Shown: positions 6,452 to 53,269 of the stretch, piece by piece
Numbering within the stretch: the first letter of the stretch is position 1
Layout: each line of letters begins with the position of its first letter
From: Heterodontus francisci
Lineage: Eukaryota
DNA length: 64,000 bases
Reading direction: 5' to 3'
Assembly (NCBI RefSeq): GCF_036365525.1
Contig: NC_090386.1
Location: forward strand, 70,949,666 to 71,013,665
Notes under the pieces: generated by a model
What the model was told of the DNA's origin: nothing
What the model saw: the letters and a program-made list of their open reading frames with translations, nothing else
Database searches by the model: none
Program-made: the position numbers and the translations under genes

Positions 6452-9400
6452 GCTGCCAGCAAAAGCAAGAGTGCGCAGGGGCCCCTTTAAATGGCATCAT
6501 CTAGCTGCTGCTGCTACTACTACCTTTGTTTTTGGAAGTGGGTACAAGAGAGTGCCTGGCATCCAGACCACAGGGTGCAAAGGAGATGCTTGGAAATTGA
6601 CCTCTGCTCCACGCTGGCGGGGAACATGGACTTTCCATTCAAATGAATATGGGTTAGCAAGTCTTGCTGCTTTTCTTTCTCATCAGTGCTGCCTCTTCTC
6701 CATAAGTTGGACGTGGATAACTGGCACAATGTTGAAGAGGAATGGATGTTGCTCCAGCTGCTCCCATCAGTTGGATATGTTTCTCCACCAAAGACGAAGT
6801 TTATAAGGCAGGAATATTATTTAAAGTTATCTGGATGCTACCTCCTTAATCTATCAATAATAGGAATGAGGAACACAGGTAGGACTTGGATCATTGCTGT
6901 TAAGTCATTGAGCACACTCAATGCAAAAGAGTAGCCAAATGGTCCATTCATTATTAAGGCTGGCACATGGATACAAACTGGCCAAGTCTCACTCATTGGA
7001 AAAGACAGTTTCTCATTATAATTTTAAAATGTAATACATTTTGATGGATGTCAATCTTGAAAGTTAACACAGTTTGGTTTCAGCTGCAATCTATCTCATC
7101 TTTTTGTGGTCATTAATCTCCGTTCTAATGTTTTTTCTCAATGTTCCCAGTGCTGGATACTGTCTTTTAATTGCCTGTAATTGAAAGGCATGGACAGTGA
7201 ATAGAAGCATGTTTTGTCCAAGCAGTGAGGTGAGATATTGCTGGTCTATTACACAAGGAAATAGAATGTGCATTCAAATTACTGACCAACAATTCATACT
7301 AGTTAAACTTGAACATTGATGTTGATTTTTTTTCCTTCCAGTTGTTAAATCACTGACAGACACAGGAATTCTGAGGAGCAGTAGTTGCTGAGGGATATTT
7401 CACTGAAATCAAATTTTCACAATTCCTTGACTGCTGCCCATTTCCTATTAATCTAAACATGTGTTGAAATAAAGTCCAGAAAATAGCAAGAGCACGACTT
7501 CTGCTCCCTTCAAAATACAAGCAATAGATGCATCTGTTCCATTGATGTTGCAGACATACAGACACAATTATTTGCCTGACAATAGCTGGAACATTTAAAT
7601 GGCAGCTACTAGAATATATCGCTCAATGAAATCAGAGGAGTGAATATAATTTGAAAGTGAATGAGTGGACCATTGGACAACAAGTTACTGAGACTGATTA
7701 TCTCATCCACATATGGCTACTTTGTTCTAGGATCTGTGCTTTCCAAATCTGAGTTTGGATACATTTCTACTGTCCATTTGTCAAATTGGAAACTTACACT
7801 AGACAGAGGTGAAATAGATTTTGTTCCTTTCCATGTGCATTATACTGTGCATCAGATGCCTTTCTTGCCTTTCAACAATTGTAGGGATAGATACTGAGGG
7901 ACAGATATTGGAAGGCAGATTATTACTACTTGTTGGTAATTGAAGAAATACTCATAAAACTGTCAACTTGATGTCAATAATGCATGGATAATAGTAACAG
8001 ATTTCTGTTCGATTCCAGAAGTTAGAAGAGAATACTTTGAACTGAAAAGTCAACCGAGTTAATTTTAATGGTACACTGATACTAAGACCCTGTCAATGGT
8101 TGGACCATAGAAATGATACAGTAGTTAAAAAGTGACTGTCAGAGATATACTCAATGGATTCCCATCAATGCATTTCGACAAAATAATGTTTTTTTTTATT
8201 TCAATCTTGTGAAAAGAAAGCAAAGCAATTGCACTGTATGTTTTTATTTAATTTAAAACATGTCATGAAGAAAGAAATTTTCCAAGATTCTTTACAAATT
8301 AGCTACTTTGTTCAAGTTGTTCACCCAGGAAACACTGAAAAATGTATATGTAGACAATCAGTTTTGAAAAATATAATGTCCATCTCTTGGAGCTCTTCAG
8401 TTGAATTATATTACCATTCTATGTCTGAATGGGCTTTAACTGTCAAGAAGTCAGACATGCAGCTTAAATATTTCTTTTTAAGTAATCCTGGTGCTGCTAA
8501 AAAGCTTATTTTATCCACAAATTGGAACAGGTAAAATAAATAGAAAAACTGTGCCTACCCACTGTTTCTGTTTTAAAAAATAAATAATGTTTGTGCTTGG
8601 AGTGCTTTGTGTTTTACAGTCAATTAACATCCTCTCTGTACTAACGCTTTGTCTTTCAACACACCGTTAACATACCGTTTGCCTTTGTTCCATGACCTTC
8701 ATTTGTGGCTATTTGTTGCCATATTTAGACTTTTCTGCTGCGATTTGTTACAATGTTCTAATTTAGTTGTGAGCACCTGGTATCATTTTCTGATTCTATG
8801 TCATGTCTACTTGGTACCATGTTTGAAATCTGTTGCTTTAGGTATTATATTCTCATTCTCTTGTGGGTATTTGGGGCAGAATACCAACTACACACAATAG
8901 AACCAGAATGGATATCAAATGCCTGCAAGAGAAAATGGGAGCTTGTACCAAATACCCACAGTCGAATTTGAACAGAATGCCAAATATCCATTACTGAATC
9001 CAAATATGGTATCAACCAGAAGCAATACCTTACCAAGAACCTACAACATAATTGGAGCCTAATGCCGCATTGAGCAGTTTTGGAATATGGTACTAAATAT
9101 CCCTAGCAATATTGGAATATAGTATTAAATACTCACAACATTATCAGAGTATGCTACTAAATACCCACAACAATTTAAGAATACAGTAATAAATAAGCAC
9201 AACAGTGTTGAAATATGGTATTGAATACTCACAACATGATTGGAATCTGGTATTAAATACAACAGAATCAGAATATGGTACTAAATACTCAACAGTATCA
9301 GAATATGGGTATTAACTTCCCAAAACAGAATTGGAATGTGGTAGTATCTACCCAGAACAGTATTGGAATATGGTACTAAATACTCACAACAGCATTGGAA

Positions 9401-10769
9401 TATGGTACAAAATACGGCAGTATCGGATTCTGTATTAAATACTCACGACAGTATTGGAATATGGTATTAAATACTCACAACAATATCGGAATATGGTATC
9501 AAGTACTCACAACAGTATCAGAATGATACTAAATTCCCACAACATGATTGGAATATGATATTAAATACCCACAACAGTATCAGTATATGGTATTAAATAC
9601 AACAGTATCGGAATATGGTATTAACTACCTAGAACAGATTCGGAATATGGTATTAACTACTCAGAACAGTATCGGAATGTGGTAGTATCTGCCCAGAACA
9701 GTATTGGAATATGGTACTAAATAACCCATGACAGTATTGGAATACGATAGTATCTACACAGAACAGTATTGGAATATGGTACTAAACACCCATGATAGAA
9801 TCGGAATATGGTTCTAAATACTCACAACAGCATCAAACTATGGTATTAAATACTCACGAGTATCAGAATATGGTATTAAATACCAAGAACAGTATTGGAA
9901 TATCATACTAAATACACACAACAGAATCGGAATGTGATGCTAAATACTCACAACAACATCGGAATGTGGTACTAAATACGCAACAGCATCAGAATATGGT
10001 ACTAAATACTCAGAACAGTATCGAAATATGGTACTAACTACCCACAATAGTATCGGAATATGGTACTAAATACTCAACAGTATCGGAATGTAGTATTAAC
10101 TACCCAGAAGAGACTCGGAATATGGTATTAACTACCCAAAACAGTATGAGAATGTGGCAGTATCTACCCAGAACAATATTGGAATATGGTACTAAATATG
10201 ACAGTATCGGAATATGTATTAAATACTCACAACAGTATTGGAATATAGTATTAAATACTCACAACAGTATCGGAGCATGATACTAAATGCCCACAACATG
10301 ATCAGAATATGGTACTAAATAGTCACAACAGTATCAGAGTACGATGCTAAACATAAAATACTAGTAGAATAAAGTACCATCTTCAACGGATTTGGAATAC
10401 GATACCATATATGCACATCAGAACCAAGAGATCACAACAGATACCCACAGCAGAATTGCAGCACAGGACAAAATAACCATAGCACATTAAGCTGTGGTAC
10501 TAAATACCCATATTAGAATGAAAGTATAATTCAAAATAACAGACTTGCTTTGTGCCAAATATATACTACAGAAACAGAAAATGATACCAATTGCCCACAA
10601 TAGAATTAGGGCATTGTAAAAGAATCATCACTAAAGAATCAAAATATGATAACAAATACCCACCACTGAATCAGAAAATTGTACCAAATAGCCACAACAG
10701 AATTAAAATACAGTATGAAATACACATGAATGAGAAAGTAATGCTAAATACTCACAACAGAATCAGAGA

Positions 10770-17899: not shown

Positions 17900-19186
17900 T
17901 ATTAGCGACAGTCAGCACGGTTTTGTGTCATTAGCGATAGTCAGCACGGTTTTGTGAAGGGTAGGTCGTGCCTCACAAACCTTATTGAGTTTTTCGAGAA
18001 GGTGACCAAACAGGTGGATGAGGGTAAAGCAGTGGATGTGGTGTATATGGATTTCAGTAAGGCGTTTGATAAGGTTCCCCACGGTAGGCTATTGCAGAAA
18101 ATATGGAAGTATGGGGTTGAAGGTGATTTAGAGCTTTGGATCAGAAATTGGCTAGCTGAAAGAAGACAGAGGGTGGTGGTTGATGGCAAATGTTCATCCT
18201 GGAGTTTAGTTACTAGTAGTGTACCGCAAGGATCTGTTTTGGGGCCACTGCTGTTTGTCATTTTTATAAATGACCTGGAAGAGGGTGTAGAAGGGTGGGT
18301 TAGTAAATTTGCGGATGACACGAAGGTCGGTGGAGTTGTGGATGGTGCCGAAGGATGTTGTAGGGTACATAGGGACACAGATAGGCTGCAGAACTGGGCT
18401 GAGAGATGGCAAATGGAGTTTAATGCGGAGAAGTGTGAGGTGATTCACTTTGGAAGGAGTAACAGGAATGCAGAGTACTGGGCTAATGGGAAGATTCTTG
18501 GTAGTGTAGATGAACAGAGAGATCTTGGTGTCCAGGTACATAAATCCCTGAAAGTTGCTACCCAGGTTAATAGGGCTGTTAAGAAGGCATATTTTGCGTT
18601 AGCTTTTATTAGTAGGGGGATCGAGTTTCGGAGCCACGGGGTCATGCTGCAGCTGTACAAAACTCTGGTGAGACCGCACCTGGTGTATTGCGTGCAGTTC
18701 TGGTCACTGCATTATAGGAAGGATGTGGAAGCTTTGGAAAGGGTGCAGAGGAGATTTACTAGGATGTTGCCTGGTATGGAGGGAAGGTCTTACGAGGAAA
18801 GGCTGAGGGACTTGAGGTTGTTTTCGTTGGAGAGAAGGAGGAGGAGAGGTGACTTAATAGAGACATATAAGGTAATCAGAGGATTAGATAGGGTGGATAG
18901 TGAGAGTCTTTTTCCTCGGATGGTGATGGCAAACACGAGGGGACATAGCTTTAAGTTGAGGGGTGATAGACATAGGACAGATGTTAGAGGTAGTTTCTTT
19001 ACTCAGAGAGTAGTAGGGGCGTGGAACGCCCTGCCTGCAACAGTAGTAGACTCGCCAACTTTAAGGGCATTTAAGTGGTCATTGGATAGACATATGGATG
19101 AAAATGGAATAGTGTAGGTCAGATGGTTTCACAGGTCGGCGCAACATCGAGGGCCGAAGGGCCTGTACTGCGCTGTAATGTTCTAA
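17900..19186 (+). mobile_element. 5'-truncated young CR1 LINE with an uninterrupted 387-aa RT/C-terminal ORF2 segment (17954-19117)
   Basis: [28 protein letters not shown] motifs; CR1 tail gggccgaagggcctgtactgcgctgtaatgttcta. Confidence 0.95.
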
Positions 19187-22290: not shown

Positions 22291-22477
22291 CCATTATTTT
22301 TCTGGTGCCAAAATTTACCTGATCTATTGAATTCATCTTGCCGTGGTGCAATTTGAACTTATGACCTCTAAACTGTAAGTCCAATATCATAACCACTAGC
22401 ATATATTGGGGAGGCAGTGGCGTAGTGGTATTGACACTGGACTAGTAACCCAGAAACACAGGGTATTGCTCTGGGGA

Positions 22478-23145
22478 TCAAAACAAGAAATGCTGGAACC
22501 ACTCAGCAGGTCTGGCAGCATCTGTGGAAAGAGAAACAGAGTTAACGTTTCAGGTCAGTGACCCTTCTTCGGAACTGACAAATATTAGAAATGTCACAGG
22601 TTATAAGCAAGTGAGGTGGGGGTGGGGCAAGAGATAACAAAGGAGAAGGTGTAGATTGGACAAGGCCACATAGCTGACCAAAAGGTCATGGAGCAAAGGC
22701 AAACAATATGTTAATGGTGTGCTGAAAGACAAAGCATTAGTACAGATAAGGTGTTAACAGACTGAATATTGAACAGCAGCAAGTGCAAACATGAAAAAAA
22801 ACAGTGGGTAAGCAAACTGAACAAACTAAGATGAAATGAAATAAATGCAAAAAAAAAAGTTGTAAAAAATGGAAAAAAGAAGAAAAGAAAAAAGAAAAAA
22901 CAACTAAAAATGAAAGTAAAATGGGGGGCTGCCATGCTCTGAAATTATTGAACTCAATGTTCAGTCCAGCAGGCTGTAGTGTGCCTAATCGGTAGATGAG
23001 ATGCTGTTCCTCGAGCTTGCGTTGATGTTCACTGGAACACTGCAGCAATCCCAGGAGAGAGATATGAGCAGGGGGGAGTGTTGAAATGGCAAGCAACCGG
23101 AAGCTCAGGGTCCTGCTTGCGGACTGAGCGGAGGTGTTCCGCAAA
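22478..23145 (-). mobile_element. Penelope-like element 3' part (GIY-YIG endonuclease C-terminus plus terminal repeat)
   Basis: HISLLGLLQCSSEHQRKLEEQHLIYRLGTLQPAGLNIEFNNF is typical of the PLE GIY-YIG C-terminus. Confidence 0.85.
22540..22577 (-). ncRNA. Minimal type I hammerhead ribozyme motif in the Penelope terminal repeat
   Basis: Minus strand agtt-CCGAAGA-a-gggtc-act-gacct-GAAAC-GTT-aact: core boxes, stem II, palindromic stem III and 4-bp stem I. Confidence 0.65.
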
Positions 23146-23446
23146 GGGACATGGGTTAGGGTTAGGGTTGTACTCAGTTGTATCTAACCACTACAAAGTC
23201 AAAGGGCTCAGGGGACATGGGTTCAAATCCCACCACAGCAGAAGGTGGAATTTGAATACAATTAATAAATCTGGAATTTAAAAAAGCTAGTCTAATGATG
23301 GCCATGAAACCATTGTCGATTGTTGTAAAAACCTATCTGGTTCACTAATGTCCTTTAGGGAAGGAAATCTGCTGTCCTTACCTGGTCTGGCCTACATGTG
23401 ACTCCAGACCCACAGCAATGTGGTTGACTCTTACATGCCCTCTGAA

Positions 23447-26310
23447 ATGGCCTAGCAAGCCACTCAGTTGTATCTAACCACTCCAAAGTCAATAAAAAGG
23501 AATGAAACGGGACGGACCACCCGGCATCGACCTAGGCACCGGAAACGACAGTGGCAAACCCAGCCCTGTCGACCCTGCAAAGTCCTCCTTACTAACATCT
23601 GGGGGCTTGTGCCAAAGTTGGGAGAGCTGTCCCACTGACTAGTCAAGCAACAGCCTGACATAGTCATACTCACGGAATCATACCTAACAGACAATGTTCC
23701 AAACTCTGCCATCATCATCCCCGGCTATGTCCTGTCCCACCGGCAGGACAGACCCAGCAGAAGTGGCAGCACAGTGTTATACAGTAGGGAGGGAGTTGCC
23801 CTGGGAGTCCTCAACATCGACTCTGGACCCCATGAAGTCTCATGGCATCAGGTCAAACATGGACAAGGAAACCTCCTGCTGATTACCACCTACCGCCCTC
23901 CCTCAGCTGATGAGTCAGTACTCCTCCATGTTGAACAGCACTTGGAGGAAGCACTGAGGGTGACAATGGTATAGAATGTACTCAGGGTGGGGGACTTCAA
24001 TATCCATCACCAAGAGTGGCTCAGTAACACCACGACTGGCCGAGTCCCAAAGGATATATCTGCTAGACTGGGTATGCGGCAGGTGGTGAGGGAACCAACA
24101 AGACGGGAAAACATACTTGACCTCATCCTCACCAATTTGCCTGCTGCAGATGCATCTGTCCATGACAGTATTGGTAGGAGTGACCACCGCACAGTCCTTG
24201 TGGAGACGAAGTCCTGCCTTCACATTGAGGACACCCTTCTTCGTGTTGTGTGGCACTACCACCGTGCTAAAATGGGATAGATTTCAAACACATCCAGCAA
24301 TGCAAAACTGGGCATCCATGAGGCGCTGTGGCCATCAGCAGCAGCAGAATTGTACTCAACCACAATATATAACCTCATGGCCCGGCATATCCCCCACTCT
24401 ACCATTATCATCAAGCCAGGAGACCAACCCTGGTTCAATGAAGAGTGCAGGAGGGCATGCCAGGAGCAGCACCAGGCATTCCTCAAAATGAGGTGTCAGC
24501 CTAGTGAAGCTACAACACAGGACTATCTGCGTGCCAAACGACGTAAGCAGCATGCGATAGACAGAGATAAGCGATCCCATAACCAATGGTTCAGATCTAA
24601 GCTCTGCAGTCCTGCCACATCCAGCCATGAATGGTGGTGGACAATTAAGCAACTAACCGGAGAAGGTGGCTCCACAAATATCCCCATCCTCAATGATGGG
24701 GGAGCCCAGCACATCGGTGCGAAAGATAAGGCTGAAGCATTTGCAACAATCTTCAGCCAGAAGTGGCAAGTTGATAATCCATCTCGGCCTCCTCCTGAAG
24801 TCCCCAGCATCACTGATGCCAGATTTTACCCAATTCGATTCACTCTGCGTGATATCAAGAAACGACTGAAGGCACTGGATACTGCAAAGGCTATGGGCCC
24901 TGACAACACCAGAACCTGCCGCGCCCCTAGCCAAGCTGTTCCAGTACAGCTACAACACTGGCATCTATCCTGCAATGTGGAAAATTGCCCAGATATGTCC
25001 TGTACACAAAAAGCAGGACAAGTCCAACCCGACCATTTACTGCCCCATCAGCTTACTCTCAATCGTCAGTAAAGTGATTTGCTTAGCAATAACCTGCTCA
25101 GTGACGCTCAGTTTGCAATCCGCCAGGGCCACTCTGCTCCTGACCTCATTACAGCCTTGGTTCAAACATGGACAAAAGAGCTGAACTCAAGAGGTGAGGT
25201 GAGAGTGACTGCCCTTGACATCAAGGCAGCATTTGACCGAGCATGGCATCAAGGAGCCCTAGCAAAACTGAGGTCAATAGGAATCAGGGGAAAAACCCTC
25301 CACTGGTTGAAGTCATACCGAGCGCAGAGGAAGATGGTTGCGGTTGTTGGAGGTCAATCATCTCAGCTCCAGAACATCACTGCAGGAGTTCCTCAGGGTA
25401 GTGTCCTAGGTCCAACCATCTTCAGCTGCTTCATCAGTGACCTTCCTTCAATCATAAGGTCAGAAGTGGGGATGTTCGCTGATGATTGCACAATGTTCAG
25501 CACCATTCGTGACTCCTCAGATACTGAAGCAGTCCGTGTAGAAATGCAGCAAGACTTGGACAATATCCAGGCTTGGGCTGATAAGTGGCAAGTAACATTT
25601 GCGCCACACAAGTGCCAGGCAATGACCGTCTCCAACAAGAGAGTATCTAACCATCTCCCCTTGACATTCAATGGCATTACCATCGCTGAATCCCCCACTA
25701 TCAACATCCTAGGGGCTACCATTGACCAGAACTGAACTGGAGTAGCCATATAAATACCGTGGCTACAAGAGCAGGTCAGAGGCTAGGAATCCTGCCGCGA
25801 GTAAGTCTCCTCCTGACTCTCCAAAGCCTGTCCACCATCTACAAGGCACAAGTCAGGAGTGTGATGGAATACTCTCCACTTGCCTGGATGGGTGCAGCTC
25901 CAACAACACTCAAGAAGCTCGACACCATCCAGGACAAAACAGCCCGCTTGATTGGCACCCCATATACACACATTCACTCCCTCCACCTCCGACGCACAGT
26001 GGCAGCAGTGTGTACCATATACAAGATGCACTGCAGCAATGCCCCAAGGCTCCTTAGACAGCACCTTTCAAACCCGCGATCTCTACCAACTAGAAGGACA
26101 AGGGCAGCAAATACATGGGAATACCACCACCTGCAAGTTCCCCTCCAAGTCACACACCATCCTGACTTGGAACTTTATCACCGTTTCTTCACTGTCGCTG
26201 GGTCAAAATCCTGGAACTCCCTTCCTAACAGTACTGTGGGTGTACCTACCCCAAATGGACTGCAGCAGTTCAAGAAGGCAGCTCATCACCACCTTCTCAA
26301 GGGCAATTAG
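23447..26310 (+). pseudogene. APE endonuclease-reverse transcriptase ORF of the tRNA-headed LINE (stops and frameshifts)
   Basis: ORF-track pieces 23774, 23987, 24350, 25079 and 25759 tile into one ~950-codon ORF ending HLLKGN*. Confidence 0.85.
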
Positions 26311-27025
26311 GGATGGGCATAAATGCTGGCCTGGCCAGCGACACCCACGTCCCATAAATGAATAAAAAAAAATATTACCAGCAGATTTCCTCTGGCATTG
26401 CTCACAGTAAATCAGAAGCATGGTGCAGAACAAGCAAGACAAGAACATTGAGATTGGGACCAAATGTGACACAGACATGAAGCATACACTAGACACAAGA
26501 CCTTTAACATATTACAGATAGATGTTAAAAAGTCAGATATGAAAGAACCTGGAGAAGAAAAAATGGCTGGATCTGTAAAAATGGCAGATATGTAAAAATG
26601 ACAGTTTCCAAAAAAACTACTCAGAAGGCAAGATGTGGCATAAGTTTCGAAGTAAAAAGCACCAACTCCAGAGATTTTCCCTCCTTTGGAAATTTTCATT
26701 CTCCCAATAAATATCTTGAGTGTTTTCTCAAGAATTCAAGCTTTCTTAGCATTTAAGCAACTTTATCAAAGTGAGTAGAAACATATTCCTTAAATTGGGG
26801 TTCCCAAACTGTGGCACATGTAGCCCTGGCAGTCTCTCAGGGGTACATGGAGGAAATTGTCCAATGACGGATCCTTTTGCATGCCCCTCCACTGCGTTCA
26901 CTCTCACACGCCTCTTTGTTTTCTCCCATTTCACTGTAAATTGTTACGATTTGCATTCAATTAGGAGCTGCAGGCTTTCAGTCACTGGCATTGACGGCAC
27001 TATGGGCAGTTAAATAAAAGGGTCT

Positions 27026-33479: not shown

Positions 33480-33729
33480 AACCTAAACTTATGCAGCACC
33501 TAAACTTAAACAGAACCAGAAACTAATAAAGCAGCTGAATCTAATATAGCAGCGCCAACTAATACATCACACCAAACTAATAAAGCATCTCAAACAATAC
33601 AGTACCTGAGACAATAACACAGTCACAAACTAATACAGCATCTCAGACTGGTAAATCAAATCAAACTAACACAGGACCCTACACAAATACAGCATCTCAG
33701 ACCATTACAGCATCTCAAGCTAATACTAT
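33480..33729. repeat. 18-bp minisatellite (~AAACTAATACAGCATCTC), left half
   Basis: Tandem units seen directly; continues at 41072. Confidence 0.85.
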
Positions 33730-33789
33730 AGGCAGAGTTTTAAGTGGCAAGGGGAGACAGACATAAATACAGGCACAGGGTGAAACCTA

Positions 33790-36700
33790 GGGTGGGTATG
33801 TCCTGTCCCAATAGCACAACAGACCCACCAGAGGTGGTGGTACAGTTGTATATAACTCTCCCTAGTGGAGAGGTCAATTACCAGGGGGCACAGATTTAAA
33901 GTGTTTGGTGGAAGGATTAGAAGGGACATGAGGAAAAAGGTTTTCACCCAGAGGGTGGTAGGTGTCTGGAATTCACTGCCCGGATCGATGCTGGAGGCAG
34001 AAACCCTCAACTCTTTTAAAAGGTACCTGGACATGCACTTGAAGTTCTGTAACCTGCAAGGCTACAACCAGGTGCTGGAAGGTGGGATTAGATTGGGCGG
34101 CTAGCTTTTGCAGCCGGCACAGACACGATGGGCTGAATGGCCTCCTTTTGTGCCGTAACATTTCTATGGTTCTATACAGTTGGGAGGGAGTGGCTCTGGG
34201 CATCCTCAACATTGATTCCAGACCCCATGAAGTCTCATGGCATCAGGTCTAACATGGCCAAGGAAATCTCCTGCTGATTACTACCTACTGCCCTCCCTCA
34301 GCTAATGAATCAGTGCTACTCCATGTTGAACACCACTTGGAAGAAGCAATGAGGGTAGCAAGGGCATGGAATCTTTTCTGAATGGGGACTTCAATGCCCA
34401 TCATCAAGAATGGCTGAGTCGCACCACTACTGACCAAGCTGTCTGAGTCCTAAAGGACATATCTGCCAGACTGTGCTGGCAGCAGGTGGTGAGGAAACCA
34501 ACAAGATGGAAAAACCTATTTGACCTCACCCTCACCAATCCAGCTGTTCCAGATGCATTTGTCCATGACAGTATTGTTAGGAGTGACCATTGCACAGTCC
34601 TTATGGAGACTAGCCCCCGCCCCGCCACCCCCCCCCCCCACCATCGTGTTGTGGGACACTACCGCCATGCTAAAGGTGATAGATTCAGAATAGATCTAGC
34701 AGCTCAAAACTGGGCATTCATGAGGCGCTGTGGGCCATCAACAGCAGCAGAATTGTATTCAACCACAATCTATAACCTCATGGCCCGGCATATACTTCAT
34801 TCCACCATTAACATCAAACCAGGGAATCAAACCTGGTTCAATAAGGAGTGCAGGAGCGCATGCTAGGAGCAACATCAAGCATACGTAAAAATGAGATGCC
34901 AACCAGGTGAAGCTACAACATAGGACCACTTGCATGCTAAACAGCAGAAGCACATGCGATCTCCAGCAATTAGCAATCCCAAAACCAATGAATCCGATCA
35001 AAGCTTGGTAGTCCTGCCACATCCATTCGTGAATGGTGATGGACAATTAAACAATGAACCGGAGGAGGATGCTCCACAAACATCCCCATCCTGAATGATG
35101 AGGGAGCCCAGCATGTCAATGCAAAAGACAAGGCTGAAGCATTTGCAGCCATCTGCAGCCAGCAGTGCCGAGCAGATGACAGTCTTCAGGTAATCCATTT
35201 CACTCCATATGATATCAAGAAATGGCTGACGACACTGGATACAGCAAAGTCTGTGGGCTCTGACAACATCCCAGCTGTAGAACTGAAGACTTGTGCTCCA
35301 GAACTAGCCATGTCCCAAACCAAGTTGTTCCAGTACAGCTACAATACTGGCACCTACCCGACAATGTGGAAAATTACCCAGGTATTTCTCGTCTACAAAA
35401 AGCAGAACAAATCCAATCCAGCCAATATCAACCATTCAGTCTACTCTGCATCATCAGCAAAGTGATGGAAGATGTCATCGACAGTGCTATCAAGTGGCAC
35501 TTAACCAGCAATAACCTGCTCACCTACGCTCAGTCTGGGTTCCACCAGGGCCATTGCACTCCAGACCTTATTACAGCCTTTGTCCAAACATGGTCAAAAG
35601 TGCTGAATTCAAAAGATGAGGTGAGAATGACTGCCCTTGACATCAAGGCAGCATTTGACTGAGTATGGCATCAAGGAGCCCTAGCAAAATTCAACTTAAT
35701 GGGAATCAGGAAAATACCTCTCTGCTGGTTGGAGTCATACCTAGCACAAAGGAATGTGGTTGTGGATGTTGGAAGCCAGTCATCTATGCCCCAGGACATC
35801 ACTACAGGAGTTCATCAAGATAGTGTCCTAGGCCCAACCATCTTCAGCTGCTTCATCAATGACCTTCCCTCCAACCCATAAGGTCAGAGGTGGGGATGTT
35901 TGCTGATGATTGCACCATGCTCAGTACCGTTCGAGACTCCTCAGATACTGAAGCAGTCTGTGCCCACATGCAACAAGACCTGGACAACATTCAGGCTTGG
36001 GCTGCTAAGTGGCAAGTAACAATCATGCCACACAAGTGCCAGGCAATGACCGTCCCCAACAGGAGAGAATCTAACCACCTTCCCTTGACAATCAACAGCA
36101 TTACCACTGCTGAATCCTCCACCGTTAACATCCTGTTGATTACAATTGATCAGAAACTTAATTGAACCAAACATATAACTACTGTGACTACAAGAGCAGA
36201 TCAGAGGCTGGGAATTCTGCAGCGAGTAACTCACCTCCTGACTCGCCAAAGCCTGTCCACATTTACAAGGCACAAGTCAGGAGTGTGATGGAATACTCTC
36301 CACTTGCCTGGATGAGTGTAGCTCCAACAACACTCAAGAAGCTCGGCATCATCCAGCACAAAGCAGCCCACTTGATTGACACCCCATCCATCACTTTAAA
36401 CATTCACTCCCTCCACAGCGGCGCACAATGGCAGCACAATGCACTATCTATAAGATGCACTGCAGCAACTTGCTAAGGCTCCTTCGAGAGCACCTTCCAA
36501 ACCCATGACCTTTTACCACCTAAAAGGACAAGAGCAGCAGACACCTGGGAACACCATCAACTGCAAGATCCCCTCCAAGTGACACACCATTCTGACTTGG
36601 AAATATATCACCATTCCTTCACTGTCGCTGGGTCAAAAACCTGGAGCTCCCTTCCTAACAGCACTGTGGGTGTACCTACACCACATGGACTGCAGTGGGT

Positions 36701-36800
36701 CAAGAAGACTGCTCACTACCACCTTCTCAAGGGCAATTAGGGATGGGCAATAAATGCTGGCCTTACAAGTGACACTCCCATTCCAAGAATGAAAAAAATC
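33790..36800 (+). mobile_element. Older 5'-truncated copy of the tRNA-headed LINE family
   Basis: Colinear with ~23725-26370; same APE/RT motifs and tail. Confidence 0.9.
33855..34172 (+). mobile_element. CR1 3' fragment nested in the LINE above
   Basis: RGHRFKVFGG...FTQRVVGVWNSLP; tata duplication at the junctions. Confidence 0.85.
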
Positions 36801-37229: not shown

Positions 37230-38447
37230 CAACTTCCTTGCTGTCAGCCTTCACCACAGTAAGAAAGTAGCTTATCGCTCCTCTGAGGAGTAGCAATAGG
37301 ATCAGCCACACCAACAGCAGCAGCAACAACAACAAGGGCAACAGCAGCACCAGGAGCAACAACACCAGCAGCAGCTGCCTTCTCCACAGCTACATGCTGC
37401 TCCATGGGACAGAGGGGATGGGCATGGAGCTCCAGCTCAAAGGAGACGATACCTCCAGCACAGCGTCTACAGACAGAGGGAGAGCTTCCTCAACATGACA
37501 GAGCAACAGTGTCTCAGGGGGATCAGGCTTTGACGGCAGGCCATGACTGACATCTGTAGCCTCCTGGAACAAGACCTCTTTCCAAGTGGACCGGGTGCCC
37601 ACCTATTGCCACTGGCCATCATGGTCATCACAGCCCTGAATTTCTTTGCCTCCAGATTCTTCTAGAGATCAGCTGGAGACATCTCCGGGATCTTACAATC
37701 TGCTGCCCATAAATTCATCAAACAGGTCACCAATGCCTTGTTTTCCAAGGCCGCCAATTATATCAACTTCGCCATGGATGAGGCCAGTCAAATCCAGAGG
37801 GCTGTCGGCTTCACTGCAGAGGCTGGATTCCCACAGGTGCAGGGAGTCATTGATTCTATGCATGTGGCAATCAAGGCATCATCAGATCAGCCAGCAGTCT
37901 TCATCAACTTGAAGGGCTTCCACTCCCTCAATGTCCAGTTAGTTTGTGACAACCGAAAGGTTACCATGCATGTCTGCACTAGATATCCAGGGAGCTACCA
38001 TAACTCATTTATTCTGTGGCAATCACATCTCCCGCAAGTTTTCATTCCTCCACACAGCCTCAGCAACAGGCTCCTGGGAGACGAGGGTCAGCCTCTGAAG
38101 ATCTCGCTGCTGACTCCTATGACGAACCCGATCAGTGAACCAGCGGAGAGATACAGCAGGAGCTACATGACCACAAAGGTGATAATTGGCTTGCTGAGGA
38201 TGCAGTTCAGGTGCTTGGACAGATCTGGAGGAGCCCTTCAGTATGCCTCATCAAGGGTCTCCAGGATTGTTCTGGTCCGCTGTGCTCTTCACAACATCAC
38301 GCTGTAGAGAGGAGGGGAGCTGCAGAAAGAGGAAAGTGCAGAACTTCAGAGGAGGAGGAGGAACCAGATGTAGCCATGGTGCCTGCAGCCACACACCTGG
38401 CTGCCGGAGAAGCCCGTGATGGATTCATCCAGGCCTGCTTTATTTAA
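37230..38447 (+). pseudogene. Harbinger DDE transposase (HARBI1-like) with N-terminal poly-Q; disrupted
   Basis: GFPQVQGVIDSMHV, KGFHSLNVQLVCD, YPGS, LLGDEG, FRCLDRSGGALQY, CALHN motifs; in-frame stops. Confidence 0.88.
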
Positions 38448-41071: not shown

Positions 41072-41305
41072 TATGCCTCAAGCTAGTAAATTAAATCAAA
41101 TTAATATAGCATCTCAAAATAATACAGCATCTCAAAGAAGTAAATCAAATCAAACTAATATAGCAACCCAAAATAATACAGCATCACAAACTAATACAGC
41201 CCCTCAATCTAATATAGCCCTTCAAACTGATGAAGCCCCTTCATCTTATACAGCCCTTCAAACCAAGCAAAGCCCCTCAAGCTAATACTCCATCTCAAAC
41301 TAATA
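41072..41305. repeat. 18-bp minisatellite, right half
   Basis: Same unit as 33480-33729. Confidence 0.85.
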
Positions 41306-41790
41306 AGATTTACAAGGATGATACCAGAACTGTGATGCCTGATGCCTATCAGGAAAGGATGAACAGGTTGGGTCTCTTTTCTCTTGAAAAGGGAAGGCTG
41401 AGTTGACCATGTGGAGGTCTTTAAAATTATGAAAGGCTTTAATACAATAGACAGAGAGAGAGAGAGTTTCCACTTGTGGGAAAGAGTGAAACTTGAAGCC
41501 ATCGATATGATTGTCACAAAGAAATCAATAAGGGAATTCAGAAGAAACTTCTTTGCTAGAGAGTGATGAGAATGTGGAACCTACTACCACAGGGAGTGGT
41601 TGAGGCCAAAAAATATAGGTGCATTTAAGGAGAGGCTAGATAAGCATATGAAGGAGAAGGGAATACAGGTTTATGCTGATGGAGTTAGATAAGAAAAATG
41701 GGAGGTTGTTCGAGTGAAGCATAAAAGCAGGTACAGACGAGTTATGCTGAGTGGACTGTTTCTCTGCTTTATATTTTATGTAATTCAACG
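41305..41790 (+). mobile_element. CR1 3' fragment
   Basis: RFTRMIPEL...LGLFSLEKGRL...MWNLLP-type sequence and tail. Confidence 0.8.
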
Positions 41791-44559: not shown

Positions 44560-46670
44560 CCTAATGATCTTACATGTACCACAAAAAACAATGCTTTGTT
44601 CTGGATATATACATAATTTTGACTTGGGCAAACAGAATGCAATATTGAAATTGGCTGATGACACAAGTTTGGTTTGGCAAACAGTGACGAGGACTGTAAA
44701 AAAACTTCAGAAACACATTGACAGGTTAGGAAAATTAGCACACAGGATGTTGATGCAATTTAATGCAAAATGTGAGGTCCTTAATTTTGAGAAGAAAATC
44801 AAGGAAGGTGAGTATACACTCAATGTCCTAGATGCTAACGGATGTAGATAAACAGAGAGACCTTGAGGTTCATGTACATAATTCTCAAAGTGGAGGTGTA
44901 GGTGGATACAGCCATAAAAAGGAACTTTTGGTCTTATAAGTAGGGGCATAGAGTCCAAGGGCAAATGGCTAATGAGATTTCAACAAAGCAATTGTGCAGA
45001 AACAATGAGAGTTGTATTTATAGTTTTGGGGCTCTCCATTATCGAAAGGGGATTAAAGCCACAGAGTGCATGAAGCATTGATTTACCAGGATGATAAGAG
45101 GGTGAGAAATTATTGTTATGAGGAGAGACTTGAGCTACTTGGATTATTTCCCCCGGAACAGAGGTGGCTCAAAATTAATGAAGGGTTTTCATACAGTGAA
45201 TCTGTAAAATTGTTTGCTTTTGTTGGGAAGACAGTGATGAAAGGTGATGCAATTTTAAATGGTCACTAAGAGAAGGGTAGGCGGTGGCGTAGTGGTATTA
45301 TCATTGGACTAGTAACCCAGAGACCCAGGGTATTTCTCTGGGGACATGGGTTTGAATCCCACCACAGCAGAAGGTGGAATTTGAAGTTAATTAATAAATC
45401 TAGAATTAAAAGCTAGTCTAATGATGGCCATGAAACCATTGTCGATTGTTGTAAAAACCCATCTGATTCATTAATGTCCTTTAGGGAAGGAAATCTGCTG
45501 TCCTTACCTGGTCTGGCCTACATGTGACTCCAGACCCACAGCAATGTGGTTAACTCTTATACGTTGACGTAACCACTACGAAGTCAATAAAAAGGAATGA
45601 AACTGGACGGACCACCCGGCATCGACCTAGGCACCGGAAAGGACAACGGCAAACCCAGCCCTGTCGACCCTGCAAAGTCCTCCTTACGAACATCTGGGGG
45701 CTTGTGCCAAAGTTGGGAGAGCTGTCCCACAGACTAGTCAAGCAACAGCCTGACATAGTCATACTCACGGAATCATACCTTACAGACAATGTCCCAGACA
45801 CTACCATCACCATCCCCGGGTACGTCCTGACCCACCGGCAGGACAGACCCACCAGAGATGGTGGCACAGTGGTATACAGTAGGGAGGGAGTTGCCCTGGG
45901 AGTCCTCAACATCGACACCGGACTTGCCTGGATGGGTGCAGCTCCAACAACACTCAAGAAGCTCGACACCATCCAGGACAAAGCAGCCCGCTTGATTGGC
46001 ACCCCATCTACAAACATTCACTCCCTCCACCACCGACGCACAGTGGCAGCAGTGTGTACCATCTACAAGATGCACTGCAGCATTGCACCAAGGCTCCTTA
46101 GACAGCACCTTTCAAACCCGCGACCTCTACCAACTAGAAGGACAAGAGCAGCAAATACATGGGAACACCACCACCTGCAAGTCCCCCTCCAAGTCACACA
46201 CCATCCTGACTTGGAACTATATCGCCGTTCCTTCACTGTCGCTGGGTAAAAATCCTGGAACTCCCTTCCTAACAGCACTGTGGGTATACCTACCCCAAAT
46301 GGACTGCAGCGGTTCTAGAAGGCAGCTCACCACCACCTTCTCAAGGGCGATTAGGGATGGGCAATAAATGCTGGCCTGGCCAGCGTCGCCCACATCCCAT
46401 GAATGAATTTTTTAAAAAAGGGGAGAGATGTTAAGCGAAATAGCTTTATACAGATGGTCATTGAGTATAGAATGCTTTTCTACCCAAGATTGGTGAGGTG
46501 GGGACCATTGCACCTTTTAAGGGAAAAGTGAGTGAACATTTGAAGTAGAGCTTTGGGAGCGCACAGGGTGGTCGAATTAGTTTTGGATTGTTCTAACAAA
46601 GAACTGAGAGAGACACAATGTCCAAGTAGCCTCCTTTTGGGCAGTAAACTTTTTTGTTCTATGGAAATGA
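44560..46670 (+). mobile_element. Old CR1 LINE split by the 45275-46419 insertion
   Basis: KLADDT...QFNAKCEV, YEERLELLGLF; 3' part resumes at ~46420. Confidence 0.7.
45275..46419 (+). mobile_element. Internally deleted tRNA-headed LINE (head + EN start fused in frame to C-terminus + tail)
   Basis: A box 45285, B box 45349; 181-aa ORF GVLNIDTG|LAWMGAAP skips ~2 kb; intact tail. Confidence 0.9.
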
Positions 46671-50606: not shown

Positions 50607-50999
50607 GGGGAGCTGGTGGCGTAGTGGTAATGTCACTAGACTAGTAACCGAGAGACCCAGGCTAATGCTCTGGGGATATGGATTTGAATCCCACCATGGC
50701 AGATGATGAAATTTGAATTCAATTAATAAATCTGGAATTAAAAAGTTAGGCTAATGGTGACCATGAAAAAATTGTTGATTGTTGTAAAAACCCATCTGGT
50801 TTACTAATGTCCTTTAGGAAATCTGCCATCCTTATCTGGTCTGGCCTACACATGATTTCAGACCCACAGCAACATGATTGACTCTTAAAAATGTCCTCTG
50901 AGGGCCTAGCATGACACTCAGTTCAAGGGCAATTAGGGGTGGGCAATAAATGCTGGCCTTGCCAGCAACACCCACATCCCATGAATGAATTTTTAAAAA
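50607..50999 (+). mobile_element. tRNA-derived SINE made of the head/5'UTR and 3' tail of the tRNA-headed LINE
   Basis: A box, degenerate B box, junction cactcagtt|caagggcaattaggg at ~50923, hairpin tail; degenerate ~9-bp TSD. Confidence 0.88.
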
Positions 51000-53269
51000 G
51001 TCGCAGTTTCCCGTCCACTCCTCAGCTTATTAAAATTGGCCTTGCCCCAATTGAGAACTCTAATTCCTGTTCTATCTCTGTCCTTTTCCATAATTATGTT
51101 AAAACTGACTGAATTATGATCACTACCACCAAAATGCTCTCCCACTGCCACTCCTTCCACCTGCCCATCTTCATTTCCTAAAACTAAGTTTAAAACTGCA
51201 CCCTCTCTGGTTGCACTTGCTACATACTGGCCAAAAATGTTCTCCTGAATGCATGTCAAGAATTCTGCTCCCTCAATTCCTTTCACACTAAAACTATGGC
51301 AGTTAATATTGGGGTAGTTAAAATCCCCTATTATTATTGCCCTACTTTTCTTGCACTTTTCAGAGATTTGCCTATATATCTGCTCTTCTATCTCCCTCTG
51401 ACTGTTTGGGGGTGCATACTACATTCCCGGCAGTGTGATTGCCCCTTTTTGTTCCTTATCTCAATCCATATGGCGTCATTTGATGAACTTTCCAACACAT
51501 CATTCCTCCTTACAGCTGTAAATGTTTCTTTGACCAAAATTGATACTTCCCCTCCTTTCTTATCCCCGTCCCTAATGTGTCTGAAAACCCTGCAACCAGG
51601 AACGTGAGCTGCCATTCCTGTCCCTCCTTAAGCTATGTTTCTTTAAAGCTATGCTATCAGACTGCCACATGTCTATCTGTGCCCTCAGCTCACCTGCTTT
51701 ATTTGCTCTACTCCTTGCATTGAAATAGATACCTTTGACCACTGCCAAACTCTTTTTTTAAATTATCTAACTTTTGTTTCCTCTGTCTTCCAGACTCATC
51801 CATTAGTTTTCTGCTTTCCATTTTCATTTCTGATTTTGTCCCACCCTCAGGTCCCCATCCCCCTGTCAAACTAGTTTAAACCCTCCCCAACAGCACTAGC
51901 AAAACATCCCGCAAGGAACTCAGTACCGGCTCTGATCAGATGCAGCCCTTCCGGCCTGTACAGGTCCCATCTCCTCCAGAGCCGGTCCCAATGTCCCAAG
52001 AATCTAAAGCCCTCCCTCCTGCACCAACTTTCCAGCCACCCATTCATCTGTCTTATCCTTCTATTCCTGTACTCACTTGCGCATGGCACTGGGAGTAATC
52101 TGGAGATTACTACTTTTGAGGTCCTGCTTGCTATTTTCTTACCTAGCTCCCTAAATTCTGACTGCAGGACCACATTCCTCTTTCTACCTATGTCGCTGGT
52201 TCCGATTTGGACCACGGCTGCTGGCTGTTCGCCTTCTCCCTTCAGGATGTTCTGCAGCTGCTCAGGGACATCCTTGACCCTGGTACCAGGGAGGCAACGC
52301 ACCACCCTGGATTCACGTCGACAGTCGCAAAAACACCTGTCCGTTCCCTTGACTGTCGAATCACCTATCACTATGGCTCTTCCCGTCTTCCCTCTACCCC
52401 TCTGTGCAGCTGAGCCACCTATGGTGCCATGGACTTGGCTCTGGCTGCACTCCCCAGATGAGCCATCACTCTCATCAGTATTCAGAACTGAATACCTGTT
52501 GGAGAGTGAGATGCACTCAACGGTCTCTGCACTACCTGCCTGTTTCTTTTTGACTGCCTGGTGGTCACCCATTCCCTCTCTCCCTGCATACTCTTAAGCT
52601 GCAGGGTGACCACATCTATAAACGTGCTAGCCACGAAGCTCTCAGCCTCATGAATGCACCACAGTGTCGCCAACTGCTGCTCAATTTCCAAAGCCTGGAG
52701 CTCAAGCTGCTGCAATTGATGACACTTCCTGCATAAATGGTTATCCAGGATATGGGAAGCATCCTGGAGCTCCCAAATTGCGCAAGAGGTGCACTCTCCA
52801 GGATGACGCAACCCTGCCATTCCTTTATTTATTAGTTGACCCTTCGCTACTGCTAAAGAAATAAATGTTACCAATACGAGAACTATTAATAAAAGCTTAC
52901 GAGTACTGATAAATCCTATAATCAATCAATACAGTTCCCTAGTTAAAATAAACCTTACTTAAAAAAAGATCATACTCACCTGCTATTTACTTGTTCCTTA
53001 TTATTAATACTTCATTTTTTTCCCGTTTTTAGTCTGCCAGTTGTTGAGAGGCAGTATCTAAGCTGCACTACTGAGCAGCCAATCACCTACCTGCTTCCTT
53101 GTGATGTCACGCCTCTCTTTTCTCTTTCTGAATGCAGACTCCGACTGGTTACAGGTGACAGCGAATCCCACTGGTCTCACTGATTCATACTGCTCTGACT
53201 ATATCTCGCCTTCCTTCTCCTCGCTTTTTTTAGCCCCACTGGTCTCGCTGATTTGTGCTGCTCTGTCTG

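Follow-up and report, generated by a model that had tools for sequence, protein, structure and literature searches.

The window, a 64,000-nucleotide stretch of Heterodontus francisci contig NC_090386.1, carries a retrotransposon unit on the plus strand at positions 22408 to 26372 (Table 1). As the preliminary description had it, this unit holds an A box, a B box, and a tail hairpin; it also has remnants of APE and RT and an A9 tail. However, the APE-RT frame of about 950 codons attributed to this copy is absent. Its ORF is interrupted by stops in frame and by indels of +1, −1, −29, −34, and −1 nt, the longest open piece is 263 amino acids, and a 975-codon frame is found instead in the family yardstick. 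The A box begins ten bases past the first base common to the family, and the family stop codon falls at 26308 to 26310. Comparison with other copies places a 738-nt insert between the A and B boxes. The presence of this insert agrees with the earlier account, but its Penelope identity is presumed from a likeness of its translation to a GIY-YIG C terminus, and Pfam returned no match for the translated insert at 22478 to 23148. With its promoter split by the insert and its frame broken, the window copy is a decayed, dead member of an abundant shark and ray LINE family. ARAGORN at default settings found no tRNA gene anywhere in the window, and Rfam gave no tRNA match on the element. A relaxed ARAGORN run called the heads but produced more than 100 spurious sites in nine loci and was discarded as evidence.

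Table 1. Positions of the element, its parts, and related copies within the window
Feature	Position	Strand	Remarks
ATATT, possible 4- to 5-bp target duplication	22403-22407 (left); 26372-26376 (right)	+ (left)	Seen in sequence; weak family-wide
tRNA-Ser-like head, 5' part	22408-22477	+	Contains A box, 22418-22428
Inserted repeat separating A box from B box	22478-23148	−	Presumed Penelope-like 3' fragment
Junction filler	23149-23206	+	Repeated head bases, GGGTTA repeats, 31-nt copy of 23462-23492
tRNA-Ser-like head, 3' part	23207-23240	+	Contains B box, 23220-23230
Conserved noncoding body	23290-23469	+	Common to LINE and 390-nt SINE
Linker	23470-23581	+	A-rich stretch, AUG at 23502 out of endonuclease frame, CpG-rich segment
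APE endonuclease coding region	23582-24260	+	Two stops in window copy
Remainder of single ORF with RT domain (about 24900-25720)	24261-26310	+	Frameshifted in window copy
3' tail	26300-26372	+	Hairpin and A9 end; also tail of derived SINE
Older, 5'-incomplete copy of same LINE lineage	34173-36798	+	79% to window copy
Second copy	45275-46417	+	Intact A and B boxes, short body-end deletion, ORF deletion of about 2 kb (joined at about 45922)
SINE form	50607-50999	+	Head and body fused straight onto about 75 nt of the LINE's 3' end

The copy at 45275 had been cited as a recurrence of the head-to-ORF arrangement. It does keep the same order, but some 2 kb of its ORF is missing as well. The ATATT duplication is likewise present at both ends of the unit but supports the boundary weakly. 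The mean match among 19 full-length copies was 2.3 nt versus 1.0 in mismatched pairs, reaching at least 5 nt in 3 of the 19, and we no longer rely on such duplications to prove where units end.

Using an APE-only query, we found that the 5' ends of 17 of 29 loci lie no more than 8 nt from a single common base and that these loci open with a tRNA-Ser-like head bearing A and B boxes. Among the other 12, one starts at 22, ten are 5' truncated in the head, body, or linker, and one is rearranged. The flanks upstream of the head agree at only 20 to 40% per column among copies. About 430 nt precede the APE region, the flanks above them are unrelated among copies, and no ORF1 was seen there. This absence had been presented as an anomaly; the observation stands, but the available text of PMC13343379 treats the lack of ORF1 as the usual state of Zenon, Rex1, and clade-B L2 elements. 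Units with head, APE, and tail in that order occupied 25 of 40 fetched regions, all of them selected at loci where the presence of the 5' part was established beforehand. The junction between head and ORF, proposed to be constant, is the same in every APE-bearing locus that extends far enough upstream.

The family yardstick is 3.3 kb long (3297 nt) with one 975-codon APE-RT frame. Pfam matched PF03372, PF14529, and PF00078 on natural copies (the first two on family copies less damaged than that of the window), and the catalytic motifs are present. Between old and young subfamily majorities, pN/pS was 0.20 in APE and 0.10 downstream of it; between middle and young majorities, it was 0.19 and 0.09, respectively, while the other reading frames gave 0.9 to 4.9. 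The APE-RT frame is thus under purifying selection, and the head is attached in the old, middle, and young subfamilies. None of 17 near-intact loci combined a head, an intact frame, and the absence of T4. In an RT tree of 30 rows, none a named Zenon, the family groups with P0001 to P0006 (99/95); the canonical CR1 of this genome falls elsewhere.

Compared with the genome's own tRNA genes (five isotypes in a Ser-biased sample), the head best matched tRNA-Ser, with z scores of 5 to 9. One pair in the anticodon-like stem is lost in the young subfamily, a change that is neutral for the promoter and shows that the head is not a working tRNA. The conserved body, putatively Deu-domain-like, has changed less along the LINE lineage than any other part of the 5' region. 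At the other end, the tail hairpin has a z score of −2.85 on the yardstick against mononucleotide shuffles, and most of the 103 copy ends finish in an A tail no longer than about 10 nt. Rfam found no ribozyme or IRES family on the element, only sub-threshold matches to a tmRNA T-arm and a hammerhead. The Deu-type body, a derived SINE, depletion of T runs, and a missing in-frame AUG had gone unmentioned in the preliminary description.

Judged by its sequence, the family is already catalogued as elasmobranch CR1-Zenon. In the text and supplement of PMC13343379 that were searched, Zenon is defined as poly(A)-ended and without ORF1, and Table S2 holds seven elasmobranch Zenon consensuses; named Zenons include CarCar, RhiTyp, ScyCan, SquAca, and HypSab. 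These elements match our family in size (2.9 to 3.3 kb), in having no ORF1, and in ending with poly(A), and their displayed 400 nt hold the same head, body, and linker. By eye, all seven begin with the tRNA-Ser-like head and contain the conserved body, and none has a T4 run in the displayed 400 nt. Two hagfish Zenons and one coelacanth Zenon have no head and do have T4 runs in the part displayed. A whale shark preprint (10.1101/443036) also lists a "CR1-Zenon like LINE." Searches for "tRNA" and "polymerase III" in the main text of PMC13343379, and for "tRNA" in the searched part of its supplement and in the searched text of the preprint, returned no matches; that searched text is silent on a tRNA head, on Pol III, on depletion of T runs, and on the missing AUG. 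The literature searched, which lay outside Repbase, Dfam, and subscription papers, held no description of a tRNA-headed coding LINE.

We then consider T runs as terminators. The sense strand of the 3297-nt yardstick has no T4 run versus 15 A4, 13 C4, and 8 G4. TTT runs numbered 4 against 12.85 expected, a value as low as which never occurred in 5000 synonymous shuffles (P < 0.0002). Windows with four T's in five fell to 1 from an expected 10.6 (P = 0.0005), and T4 or TCTTT to 0 from 2.5 (P = 0.044). T4 alone was not significantly depleted with codon usage kept (0 versus 2.1; P = 0.08) or against dinucleotide shuffles (P = 0.17). The depletion is T specific, with C4 and A4 at expectation, and the old and middle subfamily majorities have no T4 across the 1.9 kb covered. 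Phe makes up 1.9% of the family protein versus 2.9 to 5.7% in 12 relatives. The canonical CR1 of the same genome, a single control family, has 8 T4 runs in 1533 nt where 7.6 are expected. As the comparison covers this one control family, the T-poverty could partly predate acquisition of the head. A metagenome scan for headless Zenon controls yielded two poor loci, one of which (L186) has 15 T4 runs in 2.7 kb but is degraded, and a viral scan yielded none. The T-run counts on the yardstick and in the CR1 control form a signature of Pol III read-through in the sequence.

T runs also occur before the A tail, with T4 or more in 18 of 103 ends and a single T in 68. They show no age trend (rho = −0.04), and total tail length is constant at about 10 to 12 nt. 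A built-in terminator at this position was rejected, as the T run resembles conversion of the A tail.

The 390-nt SINE has the layout of the LINE with the middle removed. It leaves the LINE sequence at the last base of the body (window position 23469), and the junction is fixed at yardstick positions 321/3222 in most of 30 loci. Its head diagnostics match the middle LINE subfamily, and in a tree it is nested among LINE copies. The joint was seen in contigs from all four sequencing runs examined, one recorded as RNA. Part of the element was present in contigs from 23 of the 24 runs listed, spanning at least six organism codes; such contigs carry no start, strand, or level. The terms short, noncoding, and nonautonomous hold for the 390-nt form alone, while the LINE is 3.3 kb with a selected ORF.

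Since the first in-frame AUG lies downstream of the endonuclease, translation likely needs recoding. The AUG upstream is out of frame in 72 of the 93 copies that cover the linker, and in 6 of 7 copies of the oldest subfamily it is AUA instead. Frame ratios in the linker were 0.49 and 0.86 (old) and 0.59 and 0.31 (middle), with no clear frame preference, and inspection found no canonical slippery heptamer. Where copies carry indels between the body end and the AUG, the length is divisible by three in 10 of 15, which favors an upstream in-frame start. The corresponding spacings in six of the seven published consensuses, read by eye from the displayed part and in some cases apparently gapped, are 31, 31, 27, 31, 30, and 23 nt, which favors a noncoding leader. 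As a separate lead, a hairpin at the APE start (429 to 520; z = −3.3; one G-U/A-U change between subfamilies) lies in coding sequence.

We propose that the family is a CR1-Zenon LINE with a tRNA-Ser-like head and a SINE body, probably transcribed end to end by Pol III. TFIIIC would bind the internal boxes and Pol III would start about ten bases before the A box, then read 3.3 kb since terminators have been purged; we consider these two steps, together, probable. Such an RNA would be uncapped, so its translation likely begins with cap-independent entry, directed by the linker and the conserved body, and then relies on recoding. We would give an in-frame non-AUG start just short of an even chance and a −1 shift from the conserved out-of-frame AUG/AUA leader a somewhat smaller one, with some other route unlikely. 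CR1-group LINEs integrate by target-primed reverse transcription. Here, too, the protein would bind the 3' hairpin and the RNA would be integrated in this way, so that each full-length new copy would regain its internal promoter. The SINE likely arose from the LINE, or keeps swapping heads with it, and would use the LINE enzyme. The earlier claim that a SINE-type promoter drives a coding LINE is supported by the fixed head and the read-through signature, while Pol III origin is something we infer.

Alternatively, the head and body captured from a SINE could be a plain 5' UTR, with Pol II producing the coding RNA, either through read-through from host introns or from a cryptic promoter within the body. 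The T-poverty would then have another cause, such as avoided U-rich processing signals or inherited base composition. This would supply a cap and ease translation, it fits the nonsignificance of T4 alone under the strictest shuffles, and in the available part of PMC5786205 LINE transcription is attributed to Pol II and SINEs are said to be unable to encode protein. However, it leaves the missing in-frame AUG unsolved and sits poorly with a common start ten bases ahead of a consensus A box, with A and B boxes kept in the displayed consensuses of five shark and ray species, and with a depletion that is T specific and absent from the same-genome CR1. AATAAA at yardstick positions 119 and 343 in the 5' region would also be awkward for a Pol II RNA, although this point is weak. 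On balance, we find a Pol II origin unlikely.

Considerably less probable still is that a Pol III RNA is copied and a second RNA, made by Pol II, supplies the protein in trans, e.g., from read-through of an intronic copy or from rare copies with an AUG-restoring indel. If the template is Pol III made, purging of T runs is explained whichever RNA is translated. Private deletions do put the AUG in frame in 2 of 17 near-intact copies (L290 and L302; one 930-aa frame), as do indels in 9 of the 93 copies covering the linker. Yet these indels differ between copies, most copies (the 72 noted above) stay out of frame, and selection along the ladder-like head-bearing lineage is most simply explained if one and the same RNA is copied and translated. 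Finally, the chance insertion of a SINE beside a 5'-truncated LINE whose longer copies have ORF1 might be expected from the great abundance of both elements and the weak target duplication, but it is refuted to the point of being negligible by a junction fixed across copies and species, by the absence of anything shared upstream of the head, and by the identical layout in all seven published elasmobranch consensuses as displayed, so that, as first argued, the head marks the true and fixed start of a LINE family that encodes protein in a single ORF.

Coding LINEs are classically assigned to Pol II and noncoding SINEs to Pol III, which is thought to make only short noncoding RNAs. If Pol III transcription is correct, an abundant, long-lived LINE whose promoter is of the tRNA type and whose 2.9-kb ORF is free of terminators would represent a natural Pol III messenger. 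The element bears on efficient translation of Pol III RNAs, on the role of the Deu domain, and on the trade of modules between SINEs and LINEs. Shark repeat annotation will break this one element into separate "SINE" and "LINE" calls. The full model may be put as a 3.3-kb, Pol III-made autonomous element that predates the shark/ray split, purged its T runs despite the Phe cost, and uses its Deu domain to drive cap-independent translation, together with ribosomal recoding; we hold it tentatively, at rather less than even confidence. Were it right, a conserved SINE body would gain a first function and the SINE/LINE divide would blur.

Several known systems share parts of this arrangement. T+ SINEs (PMC12984919) are like the family in having AATAAA near the 3' end and some T runs before the A tail, but in our family those of T4 or more are confined to the minority of ends given above. 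In the available text of PMC3185411, R2 RNA is a Pol I cotranscript freed by an HDV-like ribozyme, and R2 and L1Tc provide precedent for uncapped coding LINE RNA with suspected cap-independent translation. Unlike these, our family showed no ribozyme in Rfam, and its promoter is of the tRNA type and internal. The DeuSINEs SacSINE1 and LmeSINE1, known from sharks, rays, chimaera, and coelacanth, are noncoding and have a tail like that of L2-2_CM or CR1-4_DR (PMC5499810; table in PMC3747384). They share with our family a tRNA head with A and B boxes and, putatively, the conserved body. In contrast to them, the family carries head and body on a 2.9-kb selected ORF, and its SINE form ends in the last 75 nt of Zenon. 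Persaeus, derived from a lepidopteran Zenon (PMC6740152), is like the 390-nt SINE a short element made of LINE 5' and 3' ends, but it has no tRNA homology or Pol III promoter. SINE bodies derived from RTE and Vingi, as described in the available part of PMC5786205, are also short bipartite LINE derivatives. Published bipartite cases place a small-RNA head on a noncoding derivative, whereas here the head sits on the autonomous LINE.

The ancient and abundant lineage of Zenon LINEs with a SINE-type promoter is real. Matches of the source genome (6.0 Gb) to named shark and ray proteins and to published consensuses point to an elasmobranch. An endonuclease-only query of this genome gave 40 matches; we fetched 30, including 29 loci besides the window. 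Seventeen of these 29 loci start with the tRNA-Ser-like head, at most 8 nt from one base. One of the others starts at base 22, one is rearranged, and 10 are truncated within the head, the conserved body or the linker that joins it to the endonuclease (APE). As the preliminary description had proposed, ORF1 is absent: only 430 nt precede the endonuclease, too short for an ORF1, and the flanks 5' of the common first base are unrelated among copies. The head aligned best with the genome's own tRNA-Ser genes (z of 5 to 9) in a comparison of five isotypes in which Ser was deliberately sought. The preceding base was scored as A in 13 of 19 full-length copies (TA in 9), which hints at a target or start preference.

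The window copy runs from 22408 to 26372, where it ends in an A9 tail, and its reverse transcriptase (RT) is still recognised by Pfam. Its A box (22418) and B box (23220) are separated by a 738-nt insert. The APE-RT frame of ~950 codons attributed to this copy is broken by several stops and five frame-breaking indels, the longest open piece being 263 aa. The ATATT duplication is present, but family-wide such duplications give weak boundary support (mean of 2.3 nt in 19 copies versus 1.0 in mismatched pairs). The recurrence at 45275 is a related copy, but its internal deletion spans ~2 kb. The insert's right junction (23149 to 23206) combines telomere-type GGGTTA repeats with a 31-nt duplicate of element bases 23462 to 23492, farther downstream, a makeup that reads as a templated-repair or telomerase-like signature. 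At a second genomic locus (L019:590-1328), another LINE copy, 5'-truncated at about base 57, directly adjoins the same Penelope-like 670-bp piece in opposite orientation with TATT microhomology.

Other repeats of the window
Feature	Position	Strand
Related LINE copy	45275-46417	
Short SINE form	50607-50999	
Older copy of the LINE	34173-36798	
CR1 3' fragment, apparently inserted within APE region of older Zenon copy (33794-34175)	33860-34172	
Short APE piece upstream of that fragment	33794-33852	
DDE_Tnp_4 (Harbinger-type) transposase remnant, PF13359, E 3e-18	37666-38307	
Esterase-type ORF1 (PF13472) of canonical CR1	51871-52593	-
Young CR1 3' part, copies 98% alike	17906-19117	+
32-bp tandem array, ~40 copies	9075-10335	
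Two related 18-bp arrays	33519-33730; 41085-41306	

The column majority sequence of 26 copies is 3297 nt long and holds a single frame of 975 codons between stops; copies diverge from it by 2.3 to 6.3%. Head, APE and tail occur in order in 25 of 40 longer regions (mostly ~3.27 kb), chosen from loci already known to contain the 5' part. Adding older copies gives a ladder-like tree in which every level includes head-bearing copies; base 25 or less is reached by 3/15 old, 5/8 middle and 54/90 young copies, under sampling biased towards 5' parts. Comparison of subfamily majorities gives a pN/pS of 0.19 to 0.20 in APE and 0.09 to 0.10 downstream of it (0.9 to 4.9 in other frames). Therefore, the LINE protein was needed during the period when the head was attached. 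None of 17 near-intact loci combined head, intact frame and absence of T4. In a 30-row RT tree with no named Zenon among its rows, the element clusters with six protein matches (P0001 to P0006), apart from the genome's canonical CR1. Four predicted shark or ray host proteins (P0007, P0035, P0043 and P0049) contain pieces of the ORF at 70 to 86% identity, probably as annotation artefacts or exonised copies.

The sense strand of the majority sequence contains no T4 run (A4, 15; C4, 13; G4, 8). In 5000 shuffles preserving protein and codon usage, TTT runs averaged 12.85 versus 4 observed, and no shuffle was as low. T4 alone gave 0 versus 2.1 expected (P 0.08), or versus 4.8 with codons redrawn (P 0.004); against dinucleotide shuffles its depletion was not significant (P 0.17). 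T4 and TCTTT are named as terminators in a passage of PMC12984919, and the two together gave 0 versus 2.5 expected (P 0.044), while windows with four T in five numbered 1 versus 10.6 (P 0.0005). Phe accounts for 1.9% of residues in the LINE protein versus 2.9 to 5.7% among 12 relatives. As a control, a canonical CR1 family from this genome (25 loci) shows 8 T4 runs over 1533 nt, matching expectation, and two more CR1 frames within the window show no depletion either. Such depletion is what a need for Pol III to read the entire element would produce; the evidence is indirect and uses one control family. Judged from sequence, Pol III transcription of the LINE is likely.

No in-frame AUG occurs before codon 285, which lies downstream of the endonuclease that is under selection. 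An AUG at base 354 of the majority sequence (window 23502) opens a 46-codon frame from which a -1 shift would be required to enter the ORF; this codon is AUG in 67/75 young copies and AUA in 6/7 old ones, and the offset of its frame is kept without indel in 72/93 copies. Within the 5' region the body has changed least, with 4 non-CpG differences among the 129 bases compared (141 to 280) versus 10/57 at the head's start, which points to a function. Passages of PMC3185411 give R2 and L1Tc as precedent for uncapped LINE RNA, and ORF2 initiation is termed an open question in part of PMC3894237. The evidence on where translation starts points both ways. We tentatively prefer cap-independent entry, which would be followed by an in-frame non-AUG start; the -1 shift from the upstream AUG frame is a possible, less favored alternative. 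The linker (bases 330 to 450, window ~23478 to 23598) has a CpG O/E of 1.2 versus 0.34 in the remaining ORF and is almost identical between sharks and a ray.

Among 30 loci found with the window's SINE, complete ones measure ~390 nt and the junction is almost fixed at 321/3222 of the majority sequence. The joint is present in 4/4 sequencing runs examined (all contigs). The removed middle does not end in AG and is therefore unlike an intron. SINE head diagnostics agree with those of the middle LINE subfamily. A tree built on the first 320 bases places SINE loci among LINE copies, some of them among young ones. Internal deletion of the LINE is the simplest reading, perhaps with later head exchange. 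Because SINEs of DeuSINE type that end in an L2-type tail are known from chimaera and coelacanth (a passage of PMC5499810), an older DeuSINE was probably the first source of head and body, in that inferred direction. At the 3' ends of 103 LINE and SINE copies, A tails end at ~10 nt; in 18 of them the first half is T4 to T9, with total length unchanged and no age trend. These copies carry a potential Pol III terminator of their own.

Relevant passages of PMC6740152, PMC5786205, PMC11481361, PMC7245038 and PMC3747384 describe deleted derivatives and SINE-LINE partners, and none a coding LINE with a tRNA head. In the relevant passages, a whale shark preprint goes no further than naming Zenon-like LINEs. 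Our search of literature outside Repbase, Dfam and subscription journals found no description of a tRNA-headed coding LINE; earlier notice in those three is conceivable but rather unlikely. The Zenon family itself is already known; its head architecture and the accompanying signatures of Pol III and recoding seem not to have been described before. Five elasmobranchs carry Zenon elements according to PMC13343379, which describes them as lacking ORF1, having poly(A) and not having been deposited in repeat databases; "tRNA" has no match in the main text or searchable supplement of that paper. Within the 400 nt displayed in Table S2 of PMC13343379, all seven elasmobranch consensuses (four sharks, one ray) start with the same head, body and linker and lack T4, whereas two hagfish Zenons and one from coelacanth have different starts and contain T4 runs.
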